64,000 nucleotides of DNA from Defluviicoccus sp. (GTDB lineage Bacteria; Pseudomonadota; Alphaproteobacteria; MPNO01): positions 25,565 through 89,564 of the forward strand of contig JAPPIT010000034.1 of assembly GCA_028820505.1 (NCBI GenBank). Reading direction: 5' to 3'. Each line of letters begins with the position of its first letter. The first letter of the stretch is position 1. Below are positions 701-13,631 of the stretch, one piece after another. Both the position numbers and the translations under genes were made by a program. Under the pieces are notes generated by a model. It was not told the DNA's origin, made no database searches, and saw nothing but the letters and a program-made list of their open reading frames with translations.

Positions 701-1693
701 TCAGTCGGCGAACTTTCTGAGCGCCTTGCCGTATTTGGGGCTCTTCTTCTCGATTTCGGCCCAGTGCGCATCATAGGCCGCGGCAAGCCACTTCTTGGTT
801 TCCGCATCGCTCAGATGGATGAACTCCAGCCCCTCCTTCTTGAGCGCCGCGTCCTCCTTGTTGTTCCTGTCGGTCATGAACTTTTCTTCCGCCTTTTCGA
901 TCGCCGGCCCGAGGTCGTCGATCGTCTTGCGGATGTCCGCCGGCAGGCCGTTCCAGGTCTTCATGTTGATCAACACCGCGGTGTCGTTCGAATAGAACGG
1001 GATGTCGTAGACGTATTTCGTGACCTCGTGGAACCCGTAGTCGCGGATGCCGAGGAAGGTCCAGCAGAAGCCGTTGACGACGCCGCGTTCCAGCGCGGTG
1101 TAGACCTCGCCCGCCTTCATCAGGATCGGCGTGCCGTTGAGCCCCTTCACCAGAGGCACGTAGGTCGGCGAGACGCGCATCTTGATGCCGGTCAGATCGG
1201 AGCTGGCGATCTTCTTGTTGCCGTAGCAGCGATAGCCGTTCCCGCTAGTCCCGCCCACGTGCGAGTGGTAGTAGACCCCGTGCTCGGCGTGGATCTTGCG
1301 CATCAACTCGGTGTAGCCGGCCTTTCTCAGCTCGCTCGCGAACTTCTTGACCCCGAGGCTCGCCGCCGCTTCGGGAACGGTCGCCCGGTAATAGGCGCCC
1401 GCGGTCATCAGCACGTCGACGACGCCGTCGCGCACCGCCTCGAACTGCTCGAAGGGCGGCACCACCTCGGATGTTCCGACCAGGCTGACGATTACCTTGC
1501 CCTTGAGCGCCTTGTTGACCTCCTTCTGGAAGGTCAGGAAGCCGTGGCTGCCGACGAAGTCGGGCGGCCAGGGAATCAGCCCCTTGAGAACGATCGGATC
1601 CGCCGCCCTGACCGCGGCGGTATGGCCGAACAGGCCGACCGCGCCGGCAACGGCCAGCGCCAGCGAAATTCTCTTTATTTTGGTCAATTTCAT
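701..1693 (-). CDS. dctP: TRAP transporter substrate-binding protein (DctP family)
   Basis: 330 aa with an N-terminal signal peptide (MKLTKIKRISLALAVAGAVGLFG…AAVRA); DctP-like length; sits between the DctM and DctQ genes. Confidence 0.85.
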   Translation of the reverse strand: MKLTKIKRISLALAVAGAVGLFGHTAAVRAADPIVLKGLIPWPPDFVGSHGFLTFQKEVNKALKGKVIVSLVGTSEVVPPFEQFEAVRDGVVDVLMTAGAYYRATVPEAAASLGVKKFASELRKAGYTELMRKIHAEHGVYYHSHVGGTSGNGYRCYGNKKIASSDLTGIKMRVSPTYVPLVKGLNGTPILMKAGEVYTALERGVVNGFCWTFLGIRDYGFHEVTKYVYDIPFYSNDTAVLINMKTWNGLPADIRKTIDDLGPAIEKAEEKFMTDRNNKEDAALKKEGLEFIHLSDAETKKWLAAAYDAHWAEIEKKSPKYGKALRKFAD

Positions 1694-1785: not shown

Positions 1786-3105
1786 TCACCTGTAGAAAAG
1801 GTCCTGCAGCAGCGTCGTGGTCTCGGGCACCAGAAGCACCACGGCGAGCGCGATCAGGTCGCACACCAGGAACGGCAGTCCGGCCATGTAGATCGCCCTG
1901 ATCTTGGTGCCCGGCGGAGCGACCCCCTTCATCACGAAGAGCAGCATCCCGAACGGCGGCGTGGTCAGGGCCATCTCCAGGTTGATCAGCATCAGAACGC
2001 CGAACCAGATCGGGTCGTAGCCCAGGAGCTTCACGATCGGGATATAGAGCGGCAGCGTGATCAGCATGATCGCCACCTGCTCCATGAAGGTGCCGAGGAT
2101 CAGGACCACGATCTGCATGCAGACGATCAGCAGCAGCGGGTGGATGTCGAGATTGCCGACGGCAGTGAGAAGGCCGCGCGTGGCGCCCGAGAACGCCATG
2201 ATCTGGCTGAAGCCGATGGCGCCGATCAGGATGGCGAACATCATCACCGAGATCTTCACCGTGCCGGCGACCGACCTGACAATGACCTCGCGGGTCAGCC
2301 CGCCATAGGCGAAGGCGACGATGAAGGAACCCATGCAGCCCATCGCCGCCGCCTCCGTCGGGGTGGCGATGCCGATAACGATCACCCCGGTGACCAGGAA
2401 GACGATCACGCCGAGCGGGAGCAGGTACTTGACGATGCCGACGATGCGCTCCCGCCACGGCGTTCGCTCGACTTCGTAGGCCGGGGTGAGCTCGGGCTGG
2501 AGCTTGCAGCGGATGACGATGTAGGCGACGTAGAGCACCGCCATGATCAGGCCCGGGATCAGGGCGGCGATCAGCAGCCGACCGATGGAAATCTTGCCGA
2601 TCGCGGCCAGGATAACCGCGAGCGAGCTTGGCGGCACGATCATGGCCAGCCCGCCGCTCGCGATGATCGGCCCGATCGACATCGGCGCCTTGTAGCCGCG
2701 GCGTTGCATGTCGGGCAGCAACATGGTGCCAAGCAGAGCGGTGTTGGCCATCGTCGAGCCGCTCAGGCTGGAGAACATGGTTCCGGAGGCGACGGTAAGC
2801 AGGCTGAGCCGGCCGGGCAGCCGGCCCATCAGCTTGTCGAGCACGTCGACAGCGCGGAACGCGACCTTCGAGTGCCACAGGATCTCGCCCATCAGGATGA
2901 ACAGGATGATCGGCAGCAGGGTAAAGCTGGTCACCGAGGCGTACATGCTCGCGGTGAAGGTGTTGAAGGCCGCGCCTCCGCCCTGGAGGATCAGCACCCC
3001 GAGCATGTTCACGATCACGAAGGCGAAGGCCACCGGGATGCCCTGGAGGAGCAGGAACATCGCTCCGCCGAAGATGATCAGCAGCGGGATCCACCACTCA
3101 ATCAT
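1786..3105 (-). CDS. dctM: TRAP transporter large permease (DctM family)
   Basis: 439-aa polytopic membrane protein; N-terminus MIEWWIPLLIIFGGAMFLLLQGIPVAFAF is classic DctM. Confidence 0.9.
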   Translation of the reverse strand: MIEWWIPLLIIFGGAMFLLLQGIPVAFAFVIVNMLGVLILQGGGAAFNTFTASMYASVTSFTLLPIILFILMGEILWHSKVAFRAVDVLDKLMGRLPGRLSLLTVASGTMFSSLSGSTMANTALLGTMLLPDMQRRGYKAPMSIGPIIASGGLAMIVPPSSLAVILAAIGKISIGRLLIAALIPGLIMAVLYVAYIVIRCKLQPELTPAYEVERTPWRERIVGIVKYLLPLGVIVFLVTGVIVIGIATPTEAAAMGCMGSFIVAFAYGGLTREVIVRSVAGTVKISVMMFAILIGAIGFSQIMAFSGATRGLLTAVGNLDIHPLLLIVCMQIVVLILGTFMEQVAIMLITLPLYIPIVKLLGYDPIWFGVLMLINLEMALTTPPFGMLLFVMKGVAPPGTKIRAIYMAGLPFLVCDLIALAVVLLVPETTTLLQDLFYR

Positions 3106-3271
3106 CGGCCGCGCTCCGGTGTTTCGGGCGACGCGATCCGCGGATCATCGGCGATCTGCCATCCTCCCCCGCCGCCGCACGCGACGCCCGTCGGCGCTCC
3201 TGCGGTCTCGTTGACCGAATACTAGCAGGCCGGCCGCTCCGTATGCCAACGACCGCCGGGGTGTCGTCGTC

Positions 3272-4450
3272 CTAACCGGGATCGTCGTCCCTGCAGACCC
3301 GATCCAGAACGTCGTTGATGACGTGGTGGATGCCGAGCTCCAGCTTCGACATCGGGCCCGGCCGGAGGCGGCGCGACTTCATGTTCTGCTGCAGCGACGC
3401 CACCATTTGCCGGTCCTCCTCGACGACCTCGATCAGGTATTCCCGGTAGACCTCGATCCTCTCCTCGAAGCCGGGAAGATCGAAATGCTCTTTGGGAAAG
3501 AGGGTGTAGTTGACGACGCCGCAGCGGTCGGGCCCGAGCGGCCACATCAGGAAGGGATGCACGTTATCGCATCGGGCGATCAGCTGCATGTTGGGTGAGA
3601 GACGGCCGGAACAGGCGAAGTTGTCGGGTTTGTCGTCGAGCCAGGGCATCTTTCCGAACAGACTCTCGCCGCGCGGCACCATCGGAGCGGAGTGGTAGAA
3701 CATGCTGGTTCCGCCGCGCTCGAACAGGTTGAACGGGTATCTGTCGGCTCGGCCGCGCTTCGCGCCGATGGTCTTCGCGTGCAGCGTGGCAGCGTGATAG
3801 ACGTCGAGCAGGTTCTCGACGAACAGCTTCCAGTTGCAGTCGAGCTCGACCTCGATTTTCACGGCGAGGCGGCAATCCTCCTGGCGCAGGAAGCCGAACT
3901 CCCGCTCGAAATGGGCGACGAAATCGGCCAGCGGCGGGGCGTCGTCATCGAAGGTGATAAACACCCAACCCGCCCACGTGCCGAGCCTGAGCGGCGGCAG
4001 ACCGCAGCGCGAGGGATCGAACTCCTCGGAGTCCTCCATGAACGCGGCGCCGGTGAGCGCGCCTTTCAGATCGTAGCTCCAGCCGTGATAGGGGCAACTG
4101 AAATGGCCGGTGTTGCCCTCGCCCCATATCACCTCGACCCCACGATGGGCACAGGTGTTGGAAAAGGCCCTGAGTTCTCCCTCGTCGTCGCGCACGATGA
4201 GGGCGGGTTCCCCCATGATACGGACCGCCATGTAATCGCCCGGGCTCTCCAGCTCCTCGACGCGGGCGACGCAGAGCCAGTCCTTCATGAAAATGTGCCG
4301 CTTCTCCAGTTCGTAGATCTCCGGCGAGCAGTAGAACGCGCCGGGCACGTGACGCGCTTCGACGATCGGGCGGCGGATATTCTCGAGGTTTTCGCCAGCC
4401 CACGCCGGTGCAGCGGAACCGGTTAACGGACCGTCCTCGCCGGGTACCAT
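3272..4450 (-). CDS. Rieske [2Fe-2S] non-heme-iron oxygenase alpha subunit (GbcA/CntA/Stc2-like group)
   Basis: Rieske motif CAHRG…(17)…CPYHGW; catalytic-domain motifs CNWKLFVENLLDVYH; start chosen at MVPGEDG (ATG 4450..4448) preceded by GGAGAGAG. The longer track ORF (to 4567) has no SD. Confidence 0.85.
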   Translation of the reverse strand: MVPGEDGPLTGSAAPAWAGENLENIRRPIVEARHVPGAFYCSPEIYELEKRHIFMKDWLCVARVEELESPGDYMAVRIMGEPALIVRDDEGELRAFSNTCAHRGVEVIWGEGNTGHFSCPYHGWSYDLKGALTGAAFMEDSEEFDPSRCGLPPLRLGTWAGWVFITFDDDAPPLADFVAHFEREFGFLRQEDCRLAVKIEVELDCNWKLFVENLLDVYHAATLHAKTIGAKRGRADRYPFNLFERGGTSMFYHSAPMVPRGESLFGKMPWLDDKPDNFACSGRLSPNMQLIARCDNVHPFLMWPLGPDRCGVVNYTLFPKEHFDLPGFEERIEVYREYLIEVVEEDRQMVASLQQNMKSRRLRPGPMSKLELGIHHVINDVLDRVCRDDDPG

Positions 4451-4787
4451 GGTCGGCTCTCTCCGATAGTTCGAAGGTTCGCAGGGACTGTAGTGAAACG
4501 GTTTTCGGTTCGCCACAGCCGCCATGGGGCAATGGACCGCCCCGGTCGACGTCCGCATCGCCTTCATCGAGCCAGGTTCGCCCCTGGAAAACGGATAGAT
4601 TGAGCGATTAAACCCCCATTGCCCGGCTTGGCCGCGACACCGTCAATAGATTAAAATTCCAACCGGGCCCGTCAGTCGGCGCAGGTCACGGTATTTCAGC
4701 ACGGTTTTCAGTCTGCCCGAGACGTTCTCCGTCCCCGGACGACGCGTCGGCCGTCGACACACTGGCCCGGCACCCAGGAGACACGAG

Positions 4788-6995
4788 ATGCTTCCGATCA
4801 CCGGCTATGCCGACCGCTATTCGGTAGCGCCCGGCGAATCCATCGCGTTCAAGGTGTCCTCTGCCGCGGCGGAGGACTACGAGGCGCGCCTGGTGTGCGT
4901 CATCAGCGGCGACCCCAACCCCGCCGGGCCCGGCATACGCGAGGAGCCCGTCGAGGCCGCCTTTGCCGGTCCCTATCCGTCGCGGGTGCAGCCGATCCAC
5001 AACGGCTCCTGGGCACGCGTTGCCGCCGCCGCGCCCCTCGATACGCTCAAGAGCTTCACGGTGACCGCCACCATCTGGCCTGCTTTGCCCCGTCTCTCCC
5101 GCCGGCAGGGTCTCGTGTCGCGTGTCGATGCCGTCACCGGAGCGGGCTTCACCCTTGAGATCGACGAGACCGGCGCGCTTGCCGCCACGTTGAGCGACGG
5201 CGCCCGGACGGTCGTCCTCGACACCGGCAGGGCGCTCCGCGCCCGCGCCTGGTACCGGGTTTTCCTCAGCTACGACGCGGGCGCGGGCGAGGTCCGTGTC
5301 GGACAGCTTCCGCTCGCGCCCGCGATGTTGGTCGATGATTCGGGCACCGCCGCCGCCCCCGCTTCATTCGGGGGGAGCTGCACCGGGAGCGGCGATCTGG
5401 TGTTCGCGGCGCGAGCGGGCTCGCCGCCCCGAGACCACTATAACGGCAAGCTCGAAGCGCCGCGGATCGTGGCGGCCGCTCTCGACCTGGACGCGGCATT
5501 CCGCGCCGCGGGGATAGACCGTGGCGAGAACGTTTTCGCCGCGTGGGACTTCTCGCGCGAGATGTCGTCCGTGCGCATCCTGGATACCGGCCCGCACGCG
5601 ATGCACGGCGAGACCGTCAACCTGCCGGCGCGCGCGATGAAAGGCTGGCGCTGGACGGGGGAAGAGATGTGCTGGCGCCACGCTCCCGAGCAATACGGCG
5701 CGATCCACTTTCACGACGACGACCTCTACGATTGCGGTTGGGGGACCGATTTCGTCTTCGAGGTGCCGGAGGACTTCAGGAGCGGCGTCTACGCGGTGCG
5801 CCTCAGCGCCAGCGGCGACGAGGACATGATTCCCTTCTTCGTGCGCGCCGCGCCGGGCCGGGCGCAATCGAGCGCCTGCGTGCTGATCCCCGTCTTTACC
5901 TACACCGTCTACGCCAACTTCGCCCGCGGCAATGTCGACGACGCCTACCGCCGGCAGGTCGCGGACTGGGGCGCCCGCCCGTGGACGCCGGACGAGCATC
6001 CCGAATACGGGATCTCGACCTATAACCGCCATAGCGACGGCAGCGGGGTCGCCTATTCTTCGCGACTTCGCCCGATTCTCAACCAGCGTTCCGGGTTTTG
6101 TGCCTACGCGGACCCGCTGGGCGGCTCCTGCCTCCGCCACTTCCCCGCCGACACCCATCTTCTCGCCTGGCTGGATGCGCTCGGCCACGATTTCGACGTC
6201 ATCACGGACGAGGATCTCGACGCGGACGGCGTCGACGCGATCGCGGATTACAAGGTGGTGATGACGGGCTCGCACCCGGAATACCACACGCCGGGCTCGC
6301 TCGACGCGCTCGCGGCGTACACCGAACAAGGCGGACGCCTGATGTATCTCGGCGGTAACGGCTTTTACTGGCGCGTCGCGGTCAACCCGGAACTGCCCGG
6401 CGCGGTCGAAATTCGCCGCGGCGAGACCGGAATCCGCGCCTGGGCGGCCGAGCCGGGGGAGTACTACAACGCCTTCGACGGCGGCTATGGCGGGCTGTGG
6501 CGAAACAGCGGCCGCGCGCCCCAGCGCCTCGTCGGGGTGGGATTCGTCGCTCAGGGCGACTTTCACGGCACCGCCTACCGGCGGCTCCCCGCGTCCCGCG
6601 ATCCCCGCGCCGCCTGGATCTTCGAGGGCATCGGCGACGACGAGCTCCTCGGCGACTTCGGCCTTAGCGGCGGCGGAGCGGCGGGCTTCGAACTCGACTG
6701 GCTGGACCCGAGCCTCGGATCGCCGGCCCATGCCCTCGTGCTGGCCCGCTCGGAGCGGCAGGACGACACCTTCATGCTGGTGCCGGAGGAGATGCTGAAC
6801 CACTACGTCAACCGTCCCGGTCTCCCGACCGAGGACCTCATCCGCTCCGAGATCGTGTTCTTCGAAACGCCCAACGGCGGCGCGGTGTTCTCGGTCGGAT
6901 CGATCACGTTTTGCGGGAGCCTCCCCCACAACGAGTTCGACAACAACATCTCGCGCATGCTCGACAATGTGTTGCAACGGTTCCGAAGGGACTGA
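4788..6995 (+). CDS. N,N-dimethylformamidase large (beta) subunit-like family protein
   Basis: 735-aa soluble protein; length and N-terminus (MLPITGYADRYSVAPGESIAFKVS) resemble the DmfA2-like family as I recall it; GGAG sits 7 nt upstream of the ATG. No small-subunit gene is seen. Family assignment is from memory, not from a search. Confidence 0.5.
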   Translation: MLPITGYADRYSVAPGESIAFKVSSAAAEDYEARLVCVISGDPNPAGPGIREEPVEAAFAGPYPSRVQPIHNGSWARVAAAAPLDTLKSFTVTATIWPALPRLSRRQGLVSRVDAVTGAGFTLEIDETGALAATLSDGARTVVLDTGRALRARAWYRVFLSYDAGAGEVRVGQLPLAPAMLVDDSGTAAAPASFGGSCTGSGDLVFAARAGSPPRDHYNGKLEAPRIVAAALDLDAAFRAAGIDRGENVFAAWDFSREMSSVRILDTGPHAMHGETVNLPARAMKGWRWTGEEMCWRHAPEQYGAIHFHDDDLYDCGWGTDFVFEVPEDFRSGVYAVRLSASGDEDMIPFFVRAAPGRAQSSACVLIPVFTYTVYANFARGNVDDAYRRQVADWGARPWTPDEHPEYGISTYNRHSDGSGVAYSSRLRPILNQRSGFCAYADPLGGSCLRHFPADTHLLAWLDALGHDFDVITDEDLDADGVDAIADYKVVMTGSHPEYHTPGSLDALAAYTEQGGRLMYLGGNGFYWRVAVNPELPGAVEIRRGETGIRAWAAEPGEYYNAFDGGYGGLWRNSGRAPQRLVGVGFVAQGDFHGTAYRRLPASRDPRAAWIFEGIGDDELLGDFGLSGGGAAGFELDWLDPSLGSPAHALVLARSERQDDTFMLVPEEMLNHYVNRPGLPTEDLIRSEIVFFETPNGGAVFSVGSITFCGSLPHNEFDNNISRMLDNVLQRFRRD

Positions 6996-7298
6996 ACCGC
7001 GAAGGATCGCACAGGGGCCGAGTTCTAAGATTTTTTCGGATCCGAGGCTTTTGCCGCCCGTTTTCGAACCCCCCTGAATCGGGAGTTCGATGGTTTTGGA
7101 TCGCCGAGATTATGGAGCCACAAGTCGAGTTCCGGCCACCGCCGGGAGAATGAGCCAGAAATTCCGATAAAAGCGGGTGAGCGATTATCGAACTCCGCGT
7201 GTCTGCGACAAGAATTAGAACGAATTTACTATGACCTTTCTTCGCAATCCTCCAACTGTGCTGTCACCGCCCGTTTCGGTTGATTCGCCGACGCACCC

Positions 7299-9620
7299 TC
7301 ACACGCCGTCGCCCTTTGTTTCGCGCCCGATAAGCGCGTGCAGCATTCGCTCGGACGTCATCGGCAGGTCTCGGAGCCGGATGCCGGTGGCGTCGGCGAC
7401 CGCGTTGGCGATTGCAGGGGCCACGCCTACGATGCCGGGTTCACCGATGCCCTTGGCGCCGAACGGCCCGGAGGGTTCGGGGTCCTCCACGACGATCGGG
7501 TCGATGGGATAAGGCACATCGAATGCTGTGGGCACCTTGTAGTCCATCAGCGTGGGGTTGATCAGCGTGGCCTCGTCCCAGACCATCTCCTCGGTGAGCG
7601 CGTAGCCGATCCCCTGGGCGAAGGCACCCTGGATCTGGCCCTCGACCGCCAGCGGGTTGATCGCCCGGCCAACGTCATGCGCCGACCACGCCTGCACGAC
7701 CGAGATTTGGCCCGTCACCTCGTCAACCTCGACTTCGACCGCTTGGGCGCCGAACACGTAGGTGCCGAGGTTGGAGAACGGGAACCCCCGGATCAGTGCC
7801 CGTTTCGGATCGAACCGTTCGCCATCGTACATGAGGGAGAAGTGGCCCATGATCGGGCCACCCACCGCCCAGTGCGCGCGCTTTGAAATCGCGATGAAAG
7901 GCAGCTCCTTTTCCGGCACGCCGGCGATGCCCACGCGCCCGCCGGGCCGCAACTCCAGATCTTCGCGCGCGCACTCCATCATGTCGGCCGCGTGCTCGAA
8001 AATCTGCTCCTTGACACGCTCGGCGGCACCGGCGACCGCTCGGCCGGTCATATACGTGACACGGCTGCCAGACGTGCTCCAGTTGTAGGGGGACGCGTCG
8101 GTGTCCGGATTGACGTAGTTCACCCGGTCCACCGGAACGTCGAGAGCGGCCGCGCAAATCTGCGCCAGCGCGGTATCGGCGCCCTGGCCGCTATCGACGG
8201 CGCCGGTGGCAACGGTGACCGTGCCATCTTCAAGCAGCCGGACGGCCGCGCTGGTCGACAGGAAGCCGCAGACATGCGCGAGGCACGCAACGCCGAGGCC
8301 ACGACGCTTCCCGGGCACGGATGCAACCGGCCGCGGCCGCCGGCGGGCGGCGTCGCGCACGCGCTCGATGCATTCCGTCATCCCGCAGGCTTCGATTGTC
8401 TGCCCGCCCAACCACTTGTCGCCGACATGCATCGCGTTCCGGATGCGAATCTCGAACGGATCGATGCCGAGCCGCGCAGCAATCTCGTCCACTTGCGACT
8501 CGGTGGCGAAGGTGATCTGCGGATTGCCGAAACCGCGAAAGCCGCCGGCGCGGCTCTTATTCGTGTAGACGGCCCGCCCGAACACCCGAACATTGGGGAT
8601 GTTGTACGGACCGCGCGCCTTCAGAAGCGCGGCGCCGAGGACAGCCGGGCTCTCGCTGCAGTAAGCGCCCCCTTCGAGCAGGACTTCGGCTTCGCGGGCG
8701 ACCAGCGCCCCGTCGTTCATCGCTCCCGTCTTGATCCGGATCCGCGCGGGATGGCGCCGGATCATCATCATCATGTCCTCCGAGCGGGACAGAACGATTT
8801 TCACCGGACGGCCGGTGCGCCGCGCGAGCTCGACCGCGACAGGCTGGAGGTGGGCGCCGCCCTTGCCGCCGAATGTGCCGCCGATACGCGGCGCGATCGC
8901 GCGGATCTGCGACATCGGGATATCGAGCAACGCCGAGACCTCGGCCTGTACCCGGAACACCGACTGGGTCGTCGACCACACCGTTACCTTCCCGGCGGAG
9001 TCGAATTCGGCGATCGCACCCGTCGGCTCGATCGCCTGGTGATACTGGGAGTGCGTGGTGAACTCGCTTTCGAGCACGACGTCGCATTCGTCCCACGCGC
9101 TATCGACGTCGCCTTCCACCATTTCCTGGTAGGAAACGACATTCCCGCCATATTCGATAAGGCTGCTCTTCTCGTATGCGTCCAGGTCGTCGTGCAGCTG
9201 CGGCGCGCCGTCGGCCAGCGCCTCCTCGATGGTGAGGACGGCCGGAAGCTCTTCGTACCCGATCTTCATCGCCCGAACGGCCGCCTGCGCGGTAGCGAGG
9301 TCCTCCGCCGCGGCGACCGCCACCGGTTCGCCGACATACCGCACCTTTCCGCGCGCAAGACAGGGCATGTCGCTTATCGCGCCGCCGCCGAGCCGGGGGA
9401 AGTCGTCGCCGGTCAGCACCGCGTGCACGCCAGGCATCGCCGCGGCTTCCGTGGCGTCGCAGGAAACGATCCGCCCATGCGGTATCGTGCTCAGGAGATA
9501 CGCGGCATGCAGCATTCCCGGCCGCACGATGTCGTCGAGGTACTGCGCTCGCCCGGCAATCTTCTCCCGCGCCTCCCGCCGCGGCAAACGTTCGCCGAGC
9601 CCGTGGAGCCGCTCCCCCAT
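7299..9620 (-). CDS. xanthine dehydrogenase family molybdopterin-binding large subunit (CoxL-like, not form-I CODH)
   Basis: 773 aa; GGFRGFGNPQ motif typical of molybdenum hydroxylases; lacks the VAYRCSFR active-site loop of form-I CO dehydrogenase; follows the FAD and 2Fe-2S subunit genes. Confidence 0.85.
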   Translation of the reverse strand: MGERLHGLGERLPRREAREKIAGRAQYLDDIVRPGMLHAAYLLSTIPHGRIVSCDATEAAAMPGVHAVLTGDDFPRLGGGAISDMPCLARGKVRYVGEPVAVAAAEDLATAQAAVRAMKIGYEELPAVLTIEEALADGAPQLHDDLDAYEKSSLIEYGGNVVSYQEMVEGDVDSAWDECDVVLESEFTTHSQYHQAIEPTGAIAEFDSAGKVTVWSTTQSVFRVQAEVSALLDIPMSQIRAIAPRIGGTFGGKGGAHLQPVAVELARRTGRPVKIVLSRSEDMMMMIRRHPARIRIKTGAMNDGALVAREAEVLLEGGAYCSESPAVLGAALLKARGPYNIPNVRVFGRAVYTNKSRAGGFRGFGNPQITFATESQVDEIAARLGIDPFEIRIRNAMHVGDKWLGGQTIEACGMTECIERVRDAARRRPRPVASVPGKRRGLGVACLAHVCGFLSTSAAVRLLEDGTVTVATGAVDSGQGADTALAQICAAALDVPVDRVNYVNPDTDASPYNWSTSGSRVTYMTGRAVAGAAERVKEQIFEHAADMMECAREDLELRPGGRVGIAGVPEKELPFIAISKRAHWAVGGPIMGHFSLMYDGERFDPKRALIRGFPFSNLGTYVFGAQAVEVEVDEVTGQISVVQAWSAHDVGRAINPLAVEGQIQGAFAQGIGYALTEEMVWDEATLINPTLMDYKVPTAFDVPYPIDPIVVEDPEPSGPFGAKGIGEPGIVGVAPAIANAVADATGIRLRDLPMTSERMLHALIGRETKGDGV

Positions 9621-9621
9621 C

Positions 9622-10089
9622 CTACGAATGCCCCATCATGCGTATCGCTTCGACGATCTTGGTGTATCCCGAGCAACGGCACAGGTTGCCGCCGATCGCC
9701 TCGCGAATCGCATCGACTTCCGGATGCGGGTTTTCGTCGAGCAACGCTCTTGCCGCCAGGACCATGCCCGGCATGCAATATCCGCACTGGATCGCACCGG
9801 ACGCCACGAATGCCTCCTGCACCGGGTCGAGCTCGTTGCCGTTCGCCAACCCTTCGACCGTCAGGATCGCCCGGTCGGTACAGTTGAGGGTGAGCGACAG
9901 GCACGACCGGAACGTCCGCCCGTCCAGGAGTACGGAGCAGGCACCGCAGAGGCCCTGATTGCAGCCCCGCTTGGCTCCGGTCAGGCCGAGCCCCTCTCGC
10001 AATGTGTCCAGCAGCGTGTCGGTCGGCCGTGCCGGCACCTCGACGTCGCGGCCGTTTATCGACAGGACGACAAGCCGCTTGCCGCTCAT
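9622..10089 (-). CDS. (2Fe-2S)-binding small subunit of molybdenum hydroxylase (CoxS-like)
   Basis: 155 aa; plant-type ferredoxin cysteines (CNQGLCGACSV) and a second cluster motif (CGYCMPG…CRCSGY). Confidence 0.9.
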   Translation of the reverse strand: MSGKRLVVLSINGRDVEVPARPTDTLLDTLREGLGLTGAKRGCNQGLCGACSVLLDGRTFRSCLSLTLNCTDRAILTVEGLANGNELDPVQEAFVASGAIQCGYCMPGMVLAARALLDENPHPEVDAIREAIGGNLCRCSGYTKIVEAIRMMGHS

Positions 10090-10943
10090 GCCGCTGCCTC
10101 GCGCCTGGCGATCGCGCGCCCGATCAGCCGGGCGACAAGCCGCGGGATCAGTAACCGGCGGTAATCGGCCGAGCCTCTCACGTCGCTCGGCGGGTCGGCC
10201 GCCTCGACGAGAAGCGCCGCTGCCGCCGTTATCGCTTCCTCGTCAGCGACCGTTCCCACAAGGCACGCATCGGCCTCTTCGACGTGGAGCGGCACCGGTG
10301 CGCAGCCACCGAGCGCCAGCCGGGCGGCGGATATCGCGCCGCTCTCGAAGGCGATCGTCGCCGAGGCGTTGACGGTGGCTATGTCCCCGTGCACCCGGCA
10401 CACCTTCTCGTGCACGCCTGCGGAATCGGGCGCCGGAGCCGGCAGGACGACGGCGGTCACCATCTCGCCCGGCGACAGCGTCGTCGTCAGGTAGAACTCG
10501 AAGAGGTTTTCGACCGGCGTCGACCGCCGGCCGGCGGGACCGACGATCTCCACTGTCGCTCCGGCCGCCACCAGCGCCGCGACCGCGTCGGAGGAGGGGT
10601 CGGCATGGGCGATCGCGCCGCCGATCGTGCCCATGTTGCGGATGACGATGTCGATCGTGCCCAGCGCCTCGTGCAGCACGCCGTTGGCGCGGACGAGGCG
10701 CGTATCGCCAAGGACCTCGCGATGGGTTGTCATCGCACCGATGCGGAAGCCGCCGAAGCCGTCTTCTCGAATTCCATGAAGCTCCTCGATCCGGCGCAGG
10801 CTGACCAGATGCGACGGCTCGAGCATGCCGAAATTCATCATGGCGACCAGAGAGGCGCCGCCCGCGAGGCAACGCGCGTCGTCGTCGGCTGCCAGCAAAC
10901 CGACGGCCTCGTCGATCGTTCTCGGTTCGTGAAAGTCGGGCAT
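10086..10943 (-). CDS. FAD-binding subunit of molybdenum hydroxylase (CoxM-like)
   Basis: FAD-binding PCMH-type sequence (LAGGASLVAMMNFGM…); start set at MPDFHEP (ATG 10943..10941) with GGAAAGGGG upstream; 4-nt overlap with the S-subunit gene. The track ORF extends 71 aa upstream without support. Confidence 0.8.
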   Translation of the reverse strand: MPDFHEPRTIDEAVGLLAADDDARCLAGGASLVAMMNFGMLEPSHLVSLRRIEELHGIREDGFGGFRIGAMTTHREVLGDTRLVRANGVLHEALGTIDIVIRNMGTIGGAIAHADPSSDAVAALVAAGATVEIVGPAGRRSTPVENLFEFYLTTTLSPGEMVTAVVLPAPAPDSAGVHEKVCRVHGDIATVNASATIAFESGAISAARLALGGCAPVPLHVEEADACLVGTVADEEAITAAAALLVEAADPPSDVRGSADYRRLLIPRLVARLIGRAIARREAAA

Positions 10944-11237: not shown

Positions 11238-11366
11238 GAACCGCATCTCTGTCGAGAGTCCGTCGACCTTACCCGGCTTGCACCGTGCCTCGCATCGCAC
11301 TCATACTCGACCCGATACGGGGGCGATAACGGTATCGTCGGAATGAAGCAGGGGAGGTGCGGGATG

Positions 11367-12506
11367 AACATGCGTTTCACGCGACGAAGCGTCCTTAACG
11401 GTCTCGGTTCTTCGGCGGTTCTTGCGGCAGCGACGGGCGCCGCGTCGGTGTCTCCGGGGCGCATGGGCTTCGCTGCGGCGTCCTCCGACTGGCAGGCCGG
11501 GGCTCCCGACGAGTGGCACCGCATTCTGGCGGAGGCGCGCAAGGAGGGTCAGGTTACCGTCGCCGGATTCCCGGCGCTGGCGCGTGGCATGCCGCCGGCG
11601 TTCAAGCGCGATACCGGTATCGAGCTGAAGTTTTTCGGCGGCCGTCCGTCGGAGCTGTCCTCGCGCTTCGAGGCGGAGGCCATGGCCGACAAGATGACGC
11701 TGGACATCATGCTCGGCGGCGGACGCGAGCTCGTCAAGATGAAGCCCGGGGGCTATCTCAACCCCGTGCGGCCGCAGCTCGTTCTTCCCGGCGTCGGGCC
11801 GGAAAACTACCGCGACGGCAAGCTCAAGTTCATGGACGACGATGACCAATATCTGTTGCAGGGCGCCGAATGGGTGTTCGGCTGGCTGCTGGTCAACAAG
11901 GACATCGTCGACCCCGGCAAGATCAAGGTGTGGAAGGACATGCTCAAGCCGGAGTTCCGCGGCAAGATGATCTCGCACGACCCGCGCAGCCCGGGCCCCG
12001 GCCAAGGCGCGACCAACTGGCTCTACAACACCTTCGGCATCGAGTTCGTGAAGGAGTTCTATCTCGGGCAGCAGGCGAAATTCACCACCAGCAACCGCGG
12101 CGTGGTCGAGGAGGTGGTGCGCGGCACGAGGCCCATCGCCTTCGCGTCCATCCAGTTCTTCGTCGAGAAGTTCCGCAGGGAAGGCATCAAGAATCTTGCC
12201 GTGGTGCTGCCCGACGACGCGCCGGGCTACGTGACCGGCGGCTTCTCGGTCCTCAAGCAGGCCAAAAACGTGCCGCATCCCAACGCGGCCCAGGTCTTCA
12301 TCAACTGGTATGTCAGCCGGCCCGGCCAGGAGGTCTATGAGAAGACCATGCTCGCGACCAGCAGGCGCAAGGATGTGAAGACCGGTATCCCGAGCTACCT
12401 GGTTCCGCGGCCCGGCGTGAAGTACTTCGAGGCATACAGCGAGGAGCGTTACCTGCGCCGGAAGGTGGTGGTGAAGGCGATCACCGACGCGCTCGGCAAG
12501 CGCTGA
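11367..12506 (+). CDS. ABC transporter periplasmic substrate-binding protein (Fe3+/2-aminoethylphosphonate SBP family), Tat signal
   Basis: Twin-arginine signal MNMRFTRRSVLNGLG…AAA; SBP-like length; GGGGAGG SD before the ATG at 11367; first gene of a 5-gene same-strand cluster. Confidence 0.75.
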   Translation, partial: NMRFTRRSVLNGLGSSAVLAAATGAASVSPGRMGFAAASSDWQAGAPDEWHRILAEARKEGQVTVAGFPALARGMPPAFKRDTGIELKFFGGRPSELSSRFEAEAMADKMTLDIMLGGGRELVKMKPGGYLNPVRPQLVLPGVGPENYRDGKLKFMDDDDQYLLQGAEWVFGWLLVNKDIVDPGKIKVWKDMLKPEFRGKMISHDPRSPGPGQGATNWLYNTFGIEFVKEFYLGQQAKFTTSNRGVVEEVVRGTRPIAFASIQFFVEKFRREGIKNLAVVLPDDAPGYVTGGFSVLKQAKNVPHPNAAQVFINWYVSRPGQEVYEKTMLATSRRKDVKTGIPSYLVPRPGVKYFEAYSEERYLRRKVVVKAITDALGKR

Positions 12507-12528: not shown

Positions 12529-13044
12529 GTGGCGGGGGATGCCGAAGGCGCGGCGGAAGCCCTGTTGCGGGGCGCCCGCCGCGCCGGCGTGGATGCCTGC
12601 GTCTACCTGCCGGACAGCGTGTTGTTCGGCACCATCCGGGCCTTCCGCGCCAGCGGGGAGGTGCTGATGGTGCCCTGCGCGCGCGAGGACGAAGGCATCG
12701 CCATCGCCGTCGGGCTCGATCTCGGGGGGCGTAATCCGGTGTGCCTGATGGAGGCGTCCGGCCTCGGATACAGCGGGCTGATCCTCGCCCGCGCCCAGGT
12801 CCAGCGGACGCCGGTCGTGATCCTTGCGAGCCATACCGCGGGCGGCGGCGAGCCGATGGACTACCACGGCGCCACGCGGCTCCTGTCCGAAGGCGTGTTC
12901 AGAGGGCTCGGCATACCCTTCGAGATCGCGACCGACTTCGACGGGCTGGAAGACCGGATATTCCGGGCGGTCCAGACCGCGCGCGGACAGCGCACCTGTT
13001 TCGGGCTCCTGGTCCCGCCCCATGTCATGCGGGGAGCGTCCTGA
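12529..13044 (+). CDS. thiamine-diphosphate-dependent decarboxylase alpha subunit (sulfopyruvate/phosphonopyruvate decarboxylase ComD-like)
   Basis: 171 aa TPP-enzyme N-terminal (Pyr) domain; GTG start 12529 with GAGGGA 6 nt upstream; stop overlaps the next start (cTGATGg). Confidence 0.7.
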   Translation: MAGDAEGAAEALLRGARRAGVDACVYLPDSVLFGTIRAFRASGEVLMVPCAREDEGIAIAVGLDLGGRNPVCLMEASGLGYSGLILARAQVQRTPVVILASHTAGGGEPMDYHGATRLLSEGVFRGLGIPFEIATDFDGLEDRIFRAVQTARGQRTCFGLLVPPHVMRGAS

Positions 13045-13631
13045 TGGACCGAATCGAGGCGATGGACATCGTCGCCGCGGCGCGCGGCGACGCAGCGGCG
13101 ATTGCCGGCCCGGGTGTCAACTCCGGGCTTCTCTACGCAAGGGCCGACGCGCCTGCGACCATCTACAACATGGACATGGGCTATGCGACGGCGATCGCGC
13201 TGGGCGCGGCGCTGGCGCGGCCGGACCGCAAGTTGCTCGCCATCGAGGGTGACGGGTCGTTCTTCGCGGGCGCGGCGGTGCTGTCGACGATCTGGCGGAT
13301 GCGACCCGAGAACCTCGTCGTGGTCGTGCTCGACAACGAGGTCTGGGGCACGGGCGAAGGAACCGAGCCGACCGCAACCGGCAGCGGCGCGGACATCGCC
13401 GGGCTGGCGCTCGCGAACGGTTGGGACGCCGCCCATGTCCACACCCCGGCGGGTTCGAACGAGCTCTCCGACCGGATGGGCACGGCGATGGTCGTCGCTG
13501 GCCCCCATCTCGTGGTTTGCAAGACCGACACCAGCCGCGACATGCCGTCCTCGCCCGATCGGCCGGTTCCCAGGCGCCATCAGCTCGACTGCGCGGTGAT
13601 GATGCGCGCGGAATTGAGCGGTGACGCTTAA
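13044..13631 (+). CDS. thiamine-diphosphate-dependent decarboxylase beta subunit (ComE-like, TPP-binding PP domain)
   Basis: 195 aa with TPP-binding motif GDGSFF…(N)…LDNEVWG (GDG-X24-NN-type); ATG at 13044 overlapping the alpha stop (TGATG). The track ORF 12741.. is an upstream read-through. Confidence 0.7.
   Translation: MDRIEAMDIVAAARGDAAAIAGPGVNSGLLYARADAPATIYNMDMGYATAIALGAALARPDRKLLAIEGDGSFFAGAAVLSTIWRMRPENLVVVVLDNEVWGTGEGTEPTATGSGADIAGLALANGWDAAHVHTPAGSNELSDRMGTAMVVAGPHLVVCKTDTSRDMPSSPDRPVPRRHQLDCAVMMRAELSGDA

Follow-up and report, generated by a model that had tools for sequence, protein, structure and literature searches.

Probably separately inherited catabolic units flank a DMFase-like amidohydrolase gene in Defluviicoccus

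Overview of the region

The window analysed here is a stretch of 64,000 nucleotides from Defluviicoccus sp., which is probably a sponge-associated alphaproteobacterium. Between positions 128 and 10943 it encodes dctQPM and a Rieske oxygenase on the minus strand, a 735-aa protein resembling the large subunit of N,N-dimethylformamidase (DMFase) on the plus strand, and a non-CODH molybdenum (Mo) hydroxylase in M-S-L order on the minus strand. The comparison with about 100 related loci suggests that these genes probably belong to three separately inherited catabolic units (A, B and C) lying side by side, whereas one common pathway is not supported. The gene identities and orientations which a first-pass annotation had given for 3272-10943 were all borne out by Pfam. 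The three-gene neighbourhood itself is ordinary, and the better lead is the couple of Mo hydroxylase and TPP enzyme in unit C.

No evidence was found among the related loci that the three units adjoin each other beyond chance. TRAP, Rieske and Mo-hydroxylase genes are dense in the compared genomes, and the window alone contains four Rieske oxygenase genes. Elsewhere the identical arrangement is seen only in same-species contigs that come from other samples (L092 and L107), which are not independent. It is stable in three same-species contigs.

The Rieske oxygenase and TRAP transporter operon

128..622, minus strand: TRAP small permease DctQ (Pfam DctQ, 60 bits); unit A
701..1693, minus strand: TRAP solute-binding protein DctP (Pfam DctP, 127 bits); unit A
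1786..3105, minus strand: TRAP large permease DctM (Pfam DctM, 258 bits; TIGR00786, 278 against a cut-off of 268); unit A
3272..4450, minus strand: Rieske non-haem-iron oxygenase alpha subunit, most likely 392 aa (Pfam Rieske and Ring_hydroxyl_A); heads the Rieske-dctMPQ operon; unit A
4451..4787, no strand: divergent intergenic region of 337 bp, synteny breakpoint by nucleotide comparison with L082; no Rfam family match

The genes of unit A (128-4450, minus strand) form one operon, in which the Rieske oxygenase is followed by DctM, DctP and DctQ. This co-directional unit had been proposed before, and its order recurs in L082, where Rieske-DctM-DctP-DctQ and a convergent NicX gene encode proteins 84-98% identical to those of the window (DctP 98%, DctM 97%, DctQ 92%). 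In L083-85 the order is LigB-Rieske-MBL-DctMPQ; the order after the Rieske gene is unchanged, with DctM 91% and DctQ 80% identical. The nucleotide synteny with the close relative L082 covers window positions 105-4386 at 88% identity and ends at 4386, by the start of the Rieske gene. Upstream of its Rieske gene L082 contains a SnoaL gene, a second Rieske gene and LigAB in place of the amidase.

The identity and strand of the Rieske gene were annotated correctly. Its extent of 431 aa (to 4567) has to be revised. The homologues are 380-396 aa long and the gene call of the source gives 392 aa, so that M40 of the long ORF is the most probable start of translation. The protein contains the motifs CxH...CxxH (C139-H161) and DxxHxxxxH (D255-H263, 431-aa numbering). 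Its top NCBIfam match is GbcA with 151 bits against a cut-off of 670, and its top PDB matches are CntA and Stc2, with the alignment confined to residues 74-264.

A homologue of NicX (2,5-dihydroxypyridine dioxygenase) is encoded just left of the window, convergent with unit A (PDB 7CN3, E 8e-100; CHLDIP motif kept). It is linked to the Rieske-TRAP operon in three contexts, namely the window, L082 and L105. In L107 the NicX gene is followed by genes for an Amidohydro_2 protein (PicC family) and a PaaK-like ligase, and an alpha/beta hydrolase, a possible deformylase, is encoded 6.4 kb past NicX. Unit A may thus serve an aromatic or pyridine carboxylate, which would be imported by the TRAP transporter, oxygenated and passed towards ring cleavage.

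The probable 735-aa amidohydrolase

4788..6995, plus strand: stand-alone Fe(III) amidohydrolase of the DMFase-large-subunit/acylase family, 735 aa (PF20254, DMFA2_C, 322.6 bits against a cut-off of 27); unit B

The assignment to the DMFase family is confirmed by the DMFA2_C score. In DMFase, Fe(III) is bound by Y399, Y440 and E521, and H519, N547 and E657 are catalytic (PMC7686228). All six residues are present in the 735-aa protein (Y375=Y399, Y412=Y440, H496=H519, E498=E521, N524=N547, E635=E657), and Y375, Y412, H496, E498 and N524 are invariant in 82 sequences. The position of the DMFase gate residue F693 is occupied by N671. The gene is preceded by a sigma-70-like site at 4628-4657 on the plus strand and by AGGAG 8 nt ahead of the ATG at 4788.

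A small subunit, already reported as missing, was not found either. No non-overlapping ORF of at least 90 aa flanks the gene, the two ORFs overlapping it have no Pfam match, and most alternative-frame ORFs of at least 60 aa between 4300 and 7700, taken as a concatenated query, gave no PDB match to the DMFase small subunit at E<=1. Nor does a conserved small ORF adjoin the 80 homologues described below; two seeming clusters are antisense artefacts inside the gene.

The claim that DMFase-like proteins outside DMF degraders lack an assigned function does not stand. The closest solved relative is the experimentally named N-acetyl-(R)-beta-phenylalanine acylase (PDB 8HUY, E 1e-202), ahead of DMFase itself (6LVB, E 9e-141), and the family is therefore not function-less. 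Judged by its sequence, the 735-aa protein most likely acts as a stand-alone Fe(III) N-acyl amidohydrolase. Unit B consists of one gene, which has a promoter-like site and a ribosome-binding site of its own and codes for a putative cytoplasmic enzyme. The 2-Tyr-1-Glu iron site is retained together with the catalytic His, Asn and Glu, but the small subunit and the Phe gate, which restrict true DMFase to small formamides, are missing. Fe-activated water could cleave a secondary amide of larger size, the most likely candidates being N-acyl amines or N-acyl amino acids, in keeping with the closest solved relative.

That the protein is a genuine DMFase supporting growth on DMF or methylformamides is hardly conceivable, even though all of the catalytic residues are conserved and homologues are annotated as 'N,N-dimethylformamidase' in public records. 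The large subunit of DMFase is inactive alone (PMC7686228) and no small subunit is found here, the gate position is Asn, and the C-terminal domain is nearer to the acylase (54% identity) than to DMFase (42%). Moreover, DMF is described as not known in nature (10.1101/2019.12.17.879908), the DNA seems to derive from a sponge metagenome, and no methylamine-utilisation genes were seen nearby in the window and the same-species contigs.

Neighbourhoods of the amidohydrolase homologues

Homologues of the 735-aa protein with 51-92% identity were found in 80 other genomes. All window proteins were compared by tblastn with the neighbourhoods of these 80 genes (10 kb to either side of each; 48 loci with at least 9 kb on both sides; flanks of 1.3 Mb in total). 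Within 10 kb, none of the 80 loci encodes a Mo large subunit, a NicX homologue or any protein closely related to the Rieske oxygenase or TRAP system of unit A, and no TPP subunit, LigA or LigB was found by the same search. The matches comprise one lone MoS-like and one lone VanA-like Rieske protein, and in 13 loci generic Rieske or TRAP proteins only (23-41% identity). Even among the nine closest relatives (87-92% identity) the immediate neighbours all differ; they include SBP/ABC proteins, a Na/H exchanger, PNPOx, DUF3500, a class IV aminotransferase, an IS110 transposase, an AMP ligase and a BNR protein. Conversely, the amidase is absent from five Rieske contexts and six Mo-hydroxylase contexts. 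Nothing ties the unit B gene to its neighbours, and the proposal that amidase, Mo hydroxylase and Rieske oxygenase act in one pathway is not upheld by these counts. A missing conserved neighbourhood does not prove, however, that the enzymes do not cooperate in the Defluviicoccus genome.

We also considered a functional link between the amidase and the TRAP transporter only, which would import an N-acylated carboxylate (e.g. an N-acyl amino acid) for deacylation, the Rieske gene being incidental. Plasmids of cultured Roseobacters indeed carry homologues with 46-48% identity within TRAP operons (LysR | DctPQM-amidase in Leisingera; aminotransferase-amidase-aldolase-DctPQM in Palleronia), a Leisingera-type TRAP system lies directly upstream in L039, and some DctM gene is near 8 of the 80 loci. 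The DctMPQ genes of the window, however, lie on the other strand, where they follow the Rieske gene in its operon, are conserved with Rieske and NicX rather than with the amidase, and encode proteins only 23-41% identical to the TRAP proteins beside other amidase homologues. Such a link is very improbable.

The molybdenum hydroxylase and its conserved partners

7299..9620, minus strand: Mo hydroxylase large (Moco) subunit, 773 aa (Pfam Ald_Xan_dh_C, MoCoBD_1, MoCoBD_2); unit C
9622..10089, minus strand: Mo hydroxylase [2Fe-2S] small subunit, 155 aa (Pfam Fer2, Fer2_2; 2x[2Fe-2S]); unit C
10086..10943, minus strand: Mo hydroxylase FAD medium subunit, 285 aa (Pfam FAD_binding_5, CO_deh_flav_C); unit C
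11364..12506, plus strand: ABC solute-binding protein, PotD/PhnS type (SBP_bac_8, SBP_bac_6; 73% in L086 beside the same genes); heads the operon that diverges from the Mo hydroxylase genes; unit C
12529..13044, plus strand: two-subunit TPP enzyme alpha (TPP_enzyme_N, PF02776), 171 aa; unit C
13044..13631, plus strand: two-subunit TPP enzyme beta (TPP_enzyme_C, PF02775; PDB 9iz3_B, E 3e-9), 195 aa; unit C
13621..15390, plus strand: fused double ABC permease, 589 aa (BPD_transp_1; PhnU2-like, 117 bits); unit C
15399..16535, plus strand: ABC ATPase with TOBE_2 domain (ABC_tran, TOBE_2; PotA subfamily, 315 bits); unit C
16544..17371, minus strand: class III extradiol dioxygenase beta, LigB/CarBb-like (PF02900; NF009901, 143 bits; 76% in L086); unit C
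17364..17645, minus strand: extradiol dioxygenase alpha, LigA/CarBa-like (PF07746); unit C
17642..18826, minus strand: homotrimeric Rieske oxygenase, full-length homologue of CarAa, carbazole 1,9a-dioxygenase (Pfam Rieske, Aromatic_hydrox; 80% in L086); unit C
18838..19674, minus strand: meta-cleavage-product hydrolase, HsaD/BphD/CarC type (NCBIfam HsaD 269 bits, BphD 249 bits); unit C
19700..21022, minus strand: M20 ArgE/DapE-family deacylase (Peptidase_M20; TIGR01910, 70 bits); heads the car-like operon; unit C
21187..22518, plus strand: second M20-family deacylase, divergent from the car-like operon (weak Peptidase_M20; TIGR01910, 52 bits); probably unit C

The FAD subunit had been assumed to start at the ATG at 10943, which agrees with the 285-aa call in the same-species L092; the 356-aa GTG ORF is an upstream extension. 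A Cys cluster of the kind in the 4-HBCR beta subunit is not present in this protein. The large subunit was rightly described as devoid of the form-I CODH loop: neither the form-I motif AYxCSFR nor the form-II motif AYRGAGR is present, it scores 330 with the NCBIfam CODH model (cut-off 991), and it stays under every NCBIfam equivalog cut-off. Instead it contains FRGFG, GGTFGGK and the C-terminal Glu motif GIGEPG, typical of XDH/aldehyde-oxidoreductase relatives. The best PDB match is 4-hydroxybenzoyl-CoA reductase alpha (377 bits), followed by quinoline 2-oxidoreductase (298 bits).

The Mo hydroxylase had been suggested as a partner of the amidase. Its conserved partners lie on the opposite flank, beyond 3272-10943, and are the divergent and the car-like operons, which recur with it in related loci. 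L086 (large subunit 72% identical) encodes all 11 genes at 63-80% identity in rearranged order (VanA-like Rieske-LigA-LigB-SBP-TPP_N-TPP_C-permease-ATPase-MoM-MoS-MoL). L100 (75%) shows the order MoS-MoL-SBP-TPP_N-TPP_C-permease-ATPase together with M20, hydrolase and Rieske genes, and in L103 (71%) MoS-MoL lie beside LigB-LigA-Rieske-hydrolase and M20, so that the M20 gene recurs in both loci. In L089-91 (57%) a 999-aa MoL::TPP_N fusion is followed by TPP_C, the fused TPP domain being only 25% identical to TPP_N of the window. The match lists of the Mo large subunit and TPP_N share contigs of 208854, 311531, 79754, 44457 and 16970 in size; TPP genes are not nearby in two relatives, L087 (61%) and L103.

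A Mo hydroxylase, an oxygenase and an amide hydrolase form the standard logic of the nic, pic and quinaldine pathways. We weighed a composite N-heterocycle pathway, in which a pyridine- or quinoline-type carboxylate enters by TRAP, the Mo and Rieske enzymes hydroxylate it, NicX or LigAB opens the ring, and the DMFase-like enzyme removes an N-formyl or N-acyl group and so replaces the alpha/beta-hydrolase deformylases or amidases (NicD, PicE, Amq) that normally do this. The amidase and a true NicX homologue are 4.7 kb apart, with no NicD-type hydrolase directly beside NicX, the NicX product N-formylmaleamate or a ring-opened N-heterocycle is a chemically sensible substrate for a formamidase or acylase, and the amidase family cleaves formyl and acetyl amides. 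The PicC-family and ligase genes of L107 and the stable arrangement in the same-species contigs also speak for it. It is nevertheless improbable. The 80 amidase loci, including the nine closest, offer neither NicX nor any Mo large subunit within 10 kb and only weak, generic Rieske matches; NicX and Rieske occur without the amidase in L082 and L105, as does the Mo-hydroxylase cluster in L086, L100 and L103; the break in synteny with L082 falls exactly between Rieske gene and amidase; and the alpha/beta hydrolase beyond NicX could be the deformylase. The earlier idea of an N-heterocycle thus holds loosely, in view of the NicX homologue and of a Mo hydroxylase in a carbazole/quinoxaline-type cluster, but not as a three-gene pathway.

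Proposed chemistry of unit C

Unit C extends from the Mo hydroxylase (7299-10943) onward to about 22.5 kb, with the divergent SBP/TPP/ABC operon and the convergent M20/CarC-like/CarAa-like/LigA/LigB operon. The gene identities, catalytic residues, conservation patterns and the fusion given above are observed, whereas the substrates of all units and the order of their reactions are inferred. An imported N-heteroaromatic acid, with the carboxylate beside the ring nitrogen, would be decarboxylated by the two-subunit TPP enzyme, by analogy to Lum (see below), and the Mo hydroxylase would hydroxylate a carbon beside a ring nitrogen. Subsequently the CarAa-like Rieske enzyme may dioxygenate the product, LigAB cleave the ring and the CarC-like enzyme hydrolyse the cleavage product.

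Alternatively, an ordinary 2-oxo-acid decarboxylase (sulfopyruvate, phosphonopyruvate or arylpyruvate type) and a Mo aldehyde oxidoreductase, which oxidises the released aldehyde to the acid, would perform a two-step oxidative decarboxylation instead of heterocycle hydroxylation. The TPP subunits match best the sulfopyruvate decarboxylase models (alpha 50.6 against a cut-off of 148, beta 90.6 against 221) and RhiE-type phosphonopyruvate decarboxylase alpha (PDB, E 2e-7), the FAD and FeS subunits score highest with archaeal glyceraldehyde oxidoreductase models, the transporter resembles 2-aminoethylphosphonate/polyamine systems, and a Mo-TPP fusion would suit the channelling of a reactive aldehyde. 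All those model scores are far under the cut-offs, however, and the Mo-TPP couple is embedded in, and conserved with, the CarAa/LigAB/CarC ring-cleavage set, which fits a heteroaromatic substrate as in Lum. We consider this alternative unlikely.

Comparison with known systems

The Rieske oxygenase of unit A finds its best NCBIfam and PDB matches in GbcA, CntA and Stc2, monooxygenases which N-demethylate or cleave quaternary amines, and is an alpha-only enzyme of about 390 aa. It differs in that it is far under the GbcA cut-off, has no partner reductase gene nearby and instead shows conserved linkage to a TRAP carboxylate transporter and NicX. With the nic/pic pyridine-carboxylate pathways (NicX/PicD) unit A has in common the NicX homologue, followed by the PicC-family gene, but an adjoining set of NicC, NicD, NicE or NicF is not seen here.

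The unit B protein is homologous to the N-acetyl-(R)-beta-phenylalanine acylase (PDB 8HUY, 8I59, 8I5A) over its full length (residues 1-735 versus 7-749), with the same catalytic residues, and the 8HUY entry lists acylase chains only. The two are not orthologues; in a neighbour-joining tree the window protein and the homologues of all 80 loci form a clade that excludes the acylase. DmfA1A2 of Paracoccus sp. DMF (PDB 6LVB; PMC7686228) has the same three-domain large subunit and iron site, yet it differs in the small subunit, the Phe constriction and the catalytic domain (42% identity), and the host of the window is natural and marine, not a solvent degrader.

Unit C resembles the carbazole operon (CarAa-CarBaBb-CarC) and OxoO in its CarAa-like Rieske protein (PDB matches CarAa, E 1e-108, and 2-oxoquinoline 8-monooxygenase OxoO, E 1e-75), flanked by LigA/LigB-type subunits and a BphD/HsaD-type hydrolase. 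In contrast to that operon no CarAc/CarAd electron-transfer genes are seen near unit C, and the Mo hydroxylase, TPP enzyme and M20 deacylases are added.

The lumichrome (riboflavin) catabolism of Nocardioides simplex (LumK/LumL, LumJ, LumABCD, LumE; PMC12746152) was compared by gene descriptions. LumK/LumL is a two-subunit (20 + 23 kDa) TPP-dependent heterocycle decarboxylase, which precedes LumJ, a member of the xanthine-oxidase family, as well as a Rieske and an extradiol dioxygenase, and lum clusters were found only in soil bacteria (PMC12746152). Unit C differs in its three-subunit Mo enzyme (LumJ is one 140-kDa chain), its homotrimeric CarAa-type Rieske protein (alpha/beta in Lum) and its marine sponge symbiont host, and no P450 was seen in it. 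Both share several amidohydrolases and transport genes nearby and, above all, the rare two-subunit TPP enzyme (about 20 + 23 kDa) beside a xanthine-oxidase-family hydroxylase, a Rieske and an extradiol dioxygenase. The Mo-TPP pairing would match the logic of LumKL/LumJ, in which a heteroaromatic acid is decarboxylated and then hydroxylated.

Gene content of the region

The eye-catching trio of a Rieske oxygenase, an amidase and a molybdenum (Mo) hydroxylase is a chance neighbourhood at the junction of unrelated modules, and the amidase adds a new member to a known family. The trio as it was noted in the first-pass annotation matters little by itself. The couple formed by the Mo hydroxylase and a TPP enzyme, which lies largely outside the part of the window singled out in that annotation, is the more interesting lead. 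All of the genes named earlier were found by Pfam and NCBIfam searches on the strands described; the observation is thus confirmed, and the interpretation given to it is partly supported.

Genes of the Rieske-TRAP operon, the amidase and the Mo hydroxylase, with the source of the assignment.
128-622, minus strand, DctQ (Pfam/NCBIfam)
701-1693, minus strand, DctP (Pfam/NCBIfam)
1786-3105, minus strand, DctM (Pfam/NCBIfam)
3272-4567, minus strand, ORF of the Rieske/Ring_hydroxyl_A oxygenase (Pfam), start most likely at 4450 (392-aa homologues and source gene call)
4788-6995, plus strand, PF20254 (DMFA2_C) protein of 735 aa (Pfam)
10943-7299, minus strand, xanthine-dehydrogenase-family Mo hydroxylase, three subunits in M-S-L order (Pfam/NCBIfam)

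For the Rieske gene presence and strand were correct, but its upstream boundary had been placed at 4567 and is most likely 4450, which yields 392 aa as in the homologues. The start assumed for the FAD subunit of the Mo hydroxylase, 10943, was retained.

The GC content of the window is high (about 62-72%), and its sequence forms part of a metagenome scaffold of 106 kb (ENA ERZ23495530, ROBB21-1_SAMN13943214 scaffold_312). Two long ORFs without a Pfam match, one of 537 aa (5364-6977, minus strand) and one of 953 aa (22885-25746, plus strand), run antisense to real genes and are high-GC artefacts. Scanning 1-30 kb for Rfam families and tRNAs revealed neither a riboswitch nor an integration site, and the predicted terminators are fewer than in shuffled sequence and hence uninformative. 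Within the 64 kb four Rieske oxygenase genes are encoded (3272-4450, 17642-18826, about 42590-43100 and about 52620-53310), so that chance oxygenase adjacencies arise easily in this genome. More catabolic and transport genes are located at 23383-29924, among them a TauE/SafE-family membrane protein (23383-24474), two Amidohydro_1 paralogues with 50% mutual identity (24487-25896 and about 28560-29924) and an NMT1/phosphonate-type binding protein (25893-26867) together with an ABC ATPase.

The DMFase-like amidase

The earlier assignment of the 735-aa protein to the large-subunit family of N,N-dimethylformamidase (DMFase) holds, as DMFA2_C (PF20254) matches residues 282-717 with 322.6 bits at a gathering cut-off of 27. 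Among solved structures N-acetyl-(R)-beta-phenylalanine acylase (PDB 8HUY, E 1e-202, end-to-end alignment) comes closest, ahead of the large subunit of DMFase (6LVB, E 9e-141). The catalytic domain of the amidase is 54% identical to that of the acylase versus 42% to that of DMFase, but the acylase falls outside the clade which the window amidase forms with 80 related loci in the tree.

DMFase binds Fe(III) by Y399, Y440 and E521, and mutants of its essential residues H519, N547 and E657 are inactive (PMC7686228). The three iron ligands align with Y375, Y412 and E498 of the amidase (2-Tyr-1-carboxylate) and the catalytic residues with H496, N524 and E635, which means that all six are present and that the amidase retains the complete set found in DmfA1A2, the enzyme that splits DMF into formate and dimethylamine. 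Y375, Y412, E498, H496 and N524 are invariant across 82 family sequences. A difference to DmfA1A2 concerns F693, which comes from the partner subunit and keeps the pocket to small amides (PMC7686228). This gate position is occupied by Asn (N671) in the amidase and by Ser in the acylase, in a loop region where the alignment is less certain.

The other difference is the small subunit DmfA1, which was already described as missing and could not be found by ORF, Pfam, PDB or 80-locus comparison. No ORF of at least 90 aa flanks the amidase gene, the two ORFs overlapping it have no Pfam match, and most alternative-frame ORFs of at least 60 aa from 4300-7700, searched as one concatenate, gave no small-subunit match in the PDB. 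Likewise, no conserved small ORF accompanies the homologues in the 80 loci. The two commonest clusters of apparent neighbours in these loci were dismissed as candidates for a hidden small subunit because they are antisense ORFs inside the amidase gene, again a high-GC artefact.

The DMFase large subunit is inactive without its partner DmfA1 (PMC7686228), and PDB entry 8HUY contains acylase chains only. Together with the lack of a small subunit this places the amidase, judged by its sequence, as a stand-alone member in the acylase-like part of the DMFase family. That very large family comprises 1,309 clusters (50% identity, E<=1e-30), and the gene described here is one more member of it. To our knowledge only two members have been characterised.

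By homology to the mechanism described for DMFase (PMC7686228), an Fe(III)-bound water would hydrolyse a secondary or tertiary amide with Glu635 as base, while Asn524 would stabilise the oxyanion. The missing small subunit, the missing Phe gate and the nearer kinship to the acylase lead us to argue for a putative substrate larger than DMF. Plasmids of cultured bacteria carry more distant homologues, which hint, inconsistently, at N-acylated amino-acid-like substrates: the homologue of Leisingera lies within a TRAP operon, that of Palleronia between a class III aminotransferase and aldolase plus TRAP genes, and that of Roseomonas comes after genes for an aminotransferase and a peptide-type binding protein. 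An aminotransferase gene near the amidase gene occurs in a few of the 80 loci (class IV in three, class III in three) and on two plasmids. These cases are suggestive of a theme of deacylation followed by transamination, but too sporadic to build on.

Neighbourhoods and spread of the amidase gene

The 80 genome loci contain homologues that are 51-92% identical to the amidase; 48 of them extend at least 9 kb to both sides, and the flanks amount to 1.3 Mb in total. Every protein of the first 27 kb of the window as well as the NicX-like protein encoded to its left were used as queries. The Mo large subunit, NicX, the TPP subunit, LigA and LigB are absent from all 80 loci. Weak matches comprise one lone MoS-like protein, one lone VanA-like Rieske protein (29%) and three ABC permeases (25-26%). 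The Rieske/TRAP matches in 13 loci are all generic (23-41%), and some ABC ATPase is found nearby in 22.

The proposal that amidase, Mo hydroxylase and Rieske oxygenase act in one pathway finds no comparative support among these loci. In the best form of such a composite pathway, the amidase would take an N-formyl or N-acyl group off the product of ring fission by NicX or by the car-like enzymes. This would be chemically reasonable, but the comparison lends it no support, and we regard it as improbable for this species. The nine closest relatives of the amidase (87-92%) have immediate neighbours that are entirely different from one another, including an SBP/ABC set, an Na/H exchanger, PNPOx, DUF3500, a class IV aminotransferase, an IS110 transposase, an AMP ligase and a BNR protein. 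The amidase gene therefore behaves as a singleton moving on its own.

An IS110 transposase gene is located directly upstream of the amidase gene in one related locus (L005). The repeats flanking the amidase gene of the window are short chance matches only and do not mark the boundary of a mobile element.

Among the genome loci, those nearest carry the labels Alphaproteobacteria or Defluviicoccus, and a protein cluster (P0004) with a member identical to the Rieske protein of the window over 358 residues has the NCBI label Defluviicoccus sp. The amidase is also 78-85% identical to proteins from MAGs labelled Binatia, Thermodesulfobacteriota/Deltaproteobacteria and Gammaproteobacteria/Ectothiorhodospiraceae (L010-L025, L031, L037, L044), many of which are complete chromosomes, and in the tree the alphaproteobacterial sequences nest inside this cross-phylum clade. 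Identities of about 79-83% between phyla are far too high for vertical descent and suggest a recent horizontal spread, apparently among sponge symbionts, a habitat that is deduced from contig names typical of sponge-symbiont MAG studies. The clade (79-92%; Alphaproteobacteria, Binatia-type, Gammaproteobacteria; many apparently from sponges) points to a shared natural amide in that habitat. That the amidase is a horizontally spread sponge-symbiont enzyme for some natural amide is proposed tentatively, and jointly with the reading of the TPP-Mo couple we give it somewhat less than an even chance.

The Rieske-TRAP operon and the NicX-like protein

The Rieske oxygenase contains the motifs C139xH...C158xxH and D255xxH258xxxxH263 (431-aa numbering). 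It had been described as GbcA/CntA-type, and its best matches are of that kind, but the GbcA model scores far below its cut-off (151 vs 670) and covers profile positions 32-224 only. The PDB alignments end at residue 264, and the likeness to GbcA, CntA and Stc2 is confined to the Rieske domain and the first part of the catalytic domain. A reductase partner of the GbcB/CntB type (Fer2/FAD_binding_6/NAD_binding_1) is not found among the genes called between NicX and 27 kb. The most economical guess for the substrate is an aromatic or pyridine carboxylate imported by the TRAP transporter.

The gene just left of window position 1 is located at 150-1166 of the scaffold sequence L081 and is convergent with dctQ. 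Its product aligns with 2,5-dihydroxypyridine 5,6-dioxygenase (PDB 7CN3, E 8e-100), retains the CHLDIP metal motif and is by sequence a real homologue of that enzyme. In a contig of the same species (L107:10508-14180) NicX is followed by a PaaK-like CoA ligase gene and an Amidohydro_2 (PicC-family) gene. In comparison to the nic/pic pathway the NicX-type dioxygenase is present, but NicD, NicF and NicE do not adjoin it; a generic alpha/beta hydrolase is encoded 6.4 kb beyond it in L107. No catabolic pathway was found described in the literature on homarine and Rieske enzymes.

The related locus L082 has the same Rieske-DctM-DctP-DctQ order with a convergent NicX (NicX 95%, DctP 98%, DctM 97%, Rieske 84%). 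Nucleotide synteny covers window positions 105-4386 and ends about 64 nt inside the Rieske 5' end, and upstream, in the place of the amidase, L082 encodes SnoaL, a second Rieske enzyme, an SDR and LigAB. Divergence is uneven within this syntenic block, and the Rieske protein, the least similar of the four, may evolve faster or may have been exchanged. Three further loci (L083-85, 78%) show the order LigB-Rieske-MBL-DctMPQ, and two more Rieske contexts (77% and 57%) are without TRAP genes. The Mo large subunit beside the Rieske homologue of L083 was rejected as a counterpart of the window enzyme, being only 29% identical.

The Mo hydroxylase and its conserved partners

The Mo enzyme comprises the domain sets of a Moco large subunit, a subunit with two [2Fe-2S] clusters and an FAD subunit (Pfam) and contains GGTFGGK and the C-terminal Glu of GIGEPG. 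It is, as far as its sequence is concerned, a three-subunit hydroxylase of the xanthine-dehydrogenase family. That it is no CO dehydrogenase had been recognized correctly: the large subunit has neither the form I loop AYxCSFR nor the form II loop AYRGAGR but FRGFG, and its scores for the CODH equivalogs are low (TIGR02416, 330 vs 991; NF040766, 353 vs 950). It stays under every NCBIfam equivalog cut-off, those for 4-HBCR, XdhA, PucD and PaoC among them. The best solved relatives are the alpha subunit of 4-hydroxybenzoyl-CoA reductase and quinoline 2-oxidoreductase. An identity as 4-hydroxybenzoyl-CoA reductase was rejected, as its alpha-subunit model, although the best one, is under the cut-off (562 vs 995) and the FAD subunit is without the Fe-S insertion. 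A metagenome scan with the large subunit gave six loci of 29-30% identity, which are useless for context.

The conserved partners of the Mo hydroxylase sit on its other side, beyond the part covered by the first-pass annotation, in a divergent and a convergent operon.

Genes of the two operons beyond the Mo hydroxylase, with the source of the assignment.
11364-12506, plus strand, SBP, divergent operon (Pfam)
12529-13044, plus strand, TPP_enzyme_N, 171 aa (PF02776)
13044-13631, plus strand, TPP_enzyme_C, 195 aa, stop/start overlap with TPP_N (PF02775)
13621-15390, plus strand, fused permease (Pfam)
15399-16535, plus strand, ATPase (Pfam)
21022-19700, minus strand, M20 deacylase, convergent operon (Pfam)
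19674-18838, minus strand, BphD/HsaD-type hydrolase (NCBIfam)
18826-17642, minus strand, CarAa-like Rieske oxygenase (PDB/Pfam)
17645-17364, minus strand, LigA (Pfam)
17371-16544, minus strand, LigB (Pfam)

Over its full length the Rieske protein of 17642-18826 is homologous to carbazole 1,9a-dioxygenase CarAa (E 1e-108) and to 2-oxoquinoline 8-monooxygenase (E 1e-75). Beside this carbazole-type operon (16544-21022, minus strand) neither ferredoxin nor reductase genes were observed.

The eleven genes for the Rieske oxygenase, LigA, LigB, SBP, both TPP subunits, permease, ATPase, MoM, MoS and MoL are all found in L086 (MoL 72%) with 63-80% identity in a different, collinear arrangement. L100 (MoL 75%) contains MoS-MoL-SBP-TPP_N-TPP_C-permease-ATPase together with M20, hydrolase, reductase and CarAa-type Rieske genes. 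In L103 (MoL 71%) MFS-MoS-MoL stands beside LigB-LigA-Rieske-hydrolase and M20, without TPP and ABC genes; a Rieske gene and LigAB beside the Mo hydroxylase are thus conserved in L086 and L103. Three loci (L089-91, MoL 57%; P0201, P0218, P0230) encode a MoL::TPP_N fusion of about 999 aa, followed by a separate TPP_C and preceded by CoxG-MoM-MoS (L089:10001-13000), although their TPP parts are only 25-37% identical to those of the window. L087 (8644-17402, 61%) is another heterocycle-type Mo-hydroxylase context without TPP genes, in which MoMSL, beside isochorismatase-family and hydantoinase A/B genes, is preceded by DctPQM and a 2OG oxygenase. The match lists of the Mo large subunit and TPP_N share five apparent contigs, three of them beyond the loci examined. 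The amidase is absent from all of the Mo-hydroxylase contexts examined (L086, L087, L089-91, L100, L103), and a plasmid search with the TPP beta subunit gave no match.

Comparison with lumichrome catabolism

A pathway sequence with similar parts was reconstituted in a riboflavin-catabolism paper of 2025 for the Lum enzymes of lumichrome degradation in Nocardioides simplex (PMC12746152). There, the two-subunit (20 + 23 kDa) TPP enzyme LumK/LumL decarboxylates a quinoxaline carboxylic acid whose carboxylate is next to a ring nitrogen, LumJ of the xanthine oxidase family then hydroxylates the decarboxylated product, a Rieske dioxygenase opens the heterocycle and an extradiol dioxygenase cleaves the remaining ring (PMC12746152). 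The lum cluster also holds amidohydrolases and four transport genes, and according to the authors two-subunit TPP decarboxylases are rare and lum clusters are found only in soil bacteria (PMC12746152).

Because the same parts list recurs here and comparative genomics ties the parts together, we propose that the enzymes encoded by the Mo hydroxylase genes and the two operons beyond them work as in Lum. The two-subunit TPP enzyme would decarboxylate an imported N-heteroaromatic acid, the Mo hydroxylase would then hydroxylate the ring carbon next to the nitrogen, and the product would feed ring cleavage of the carbazole type by CarAa/LigAB/CarC. The Mo hydroxylase would accordingly form, across the divergent promoter, one half of a dedicated couple for decarboxylation and subsequent hydroxylation, which, taken together with the reading of the amidase, we consider possible rather than probable. 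A live rival for these genes is a conventional 2-oxo-acid decarboxylase that works together with an aldehyde oxidoreductase.

If the proposed couple is real, it would add an independent second example of TPP-dependent heterocycle decarboxylation, a reaction first reported in 2025 for riboflavin catabolism (PMC12746152), and would extend it to marine sponge symbionts, the published clusters being from soil bacteria only. The conserved and sometimes fused Mo-TPP pairing provides a directly testable hypothesis for many so far unassignable 'CoxL-like' genes in marine symbionts.

The TPP enzyme of the window is, like LumKL, split into N- and C-domain polypeptides (171 + 195 aa, about 20 kDa). As in Lum, the hydroxylase gene is coupled to the TPP genes, both in the window and in L086, L100 and three more of the shared contigs, and is fused in L089-91, and the same cluster contains a CarAa-like Rieske oxygenase and the extradiol dioxygenase LigAB. 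The comparison is an analogy, and the Mo and Rieske enzymes differ from those of Lum in their subunit architectures.
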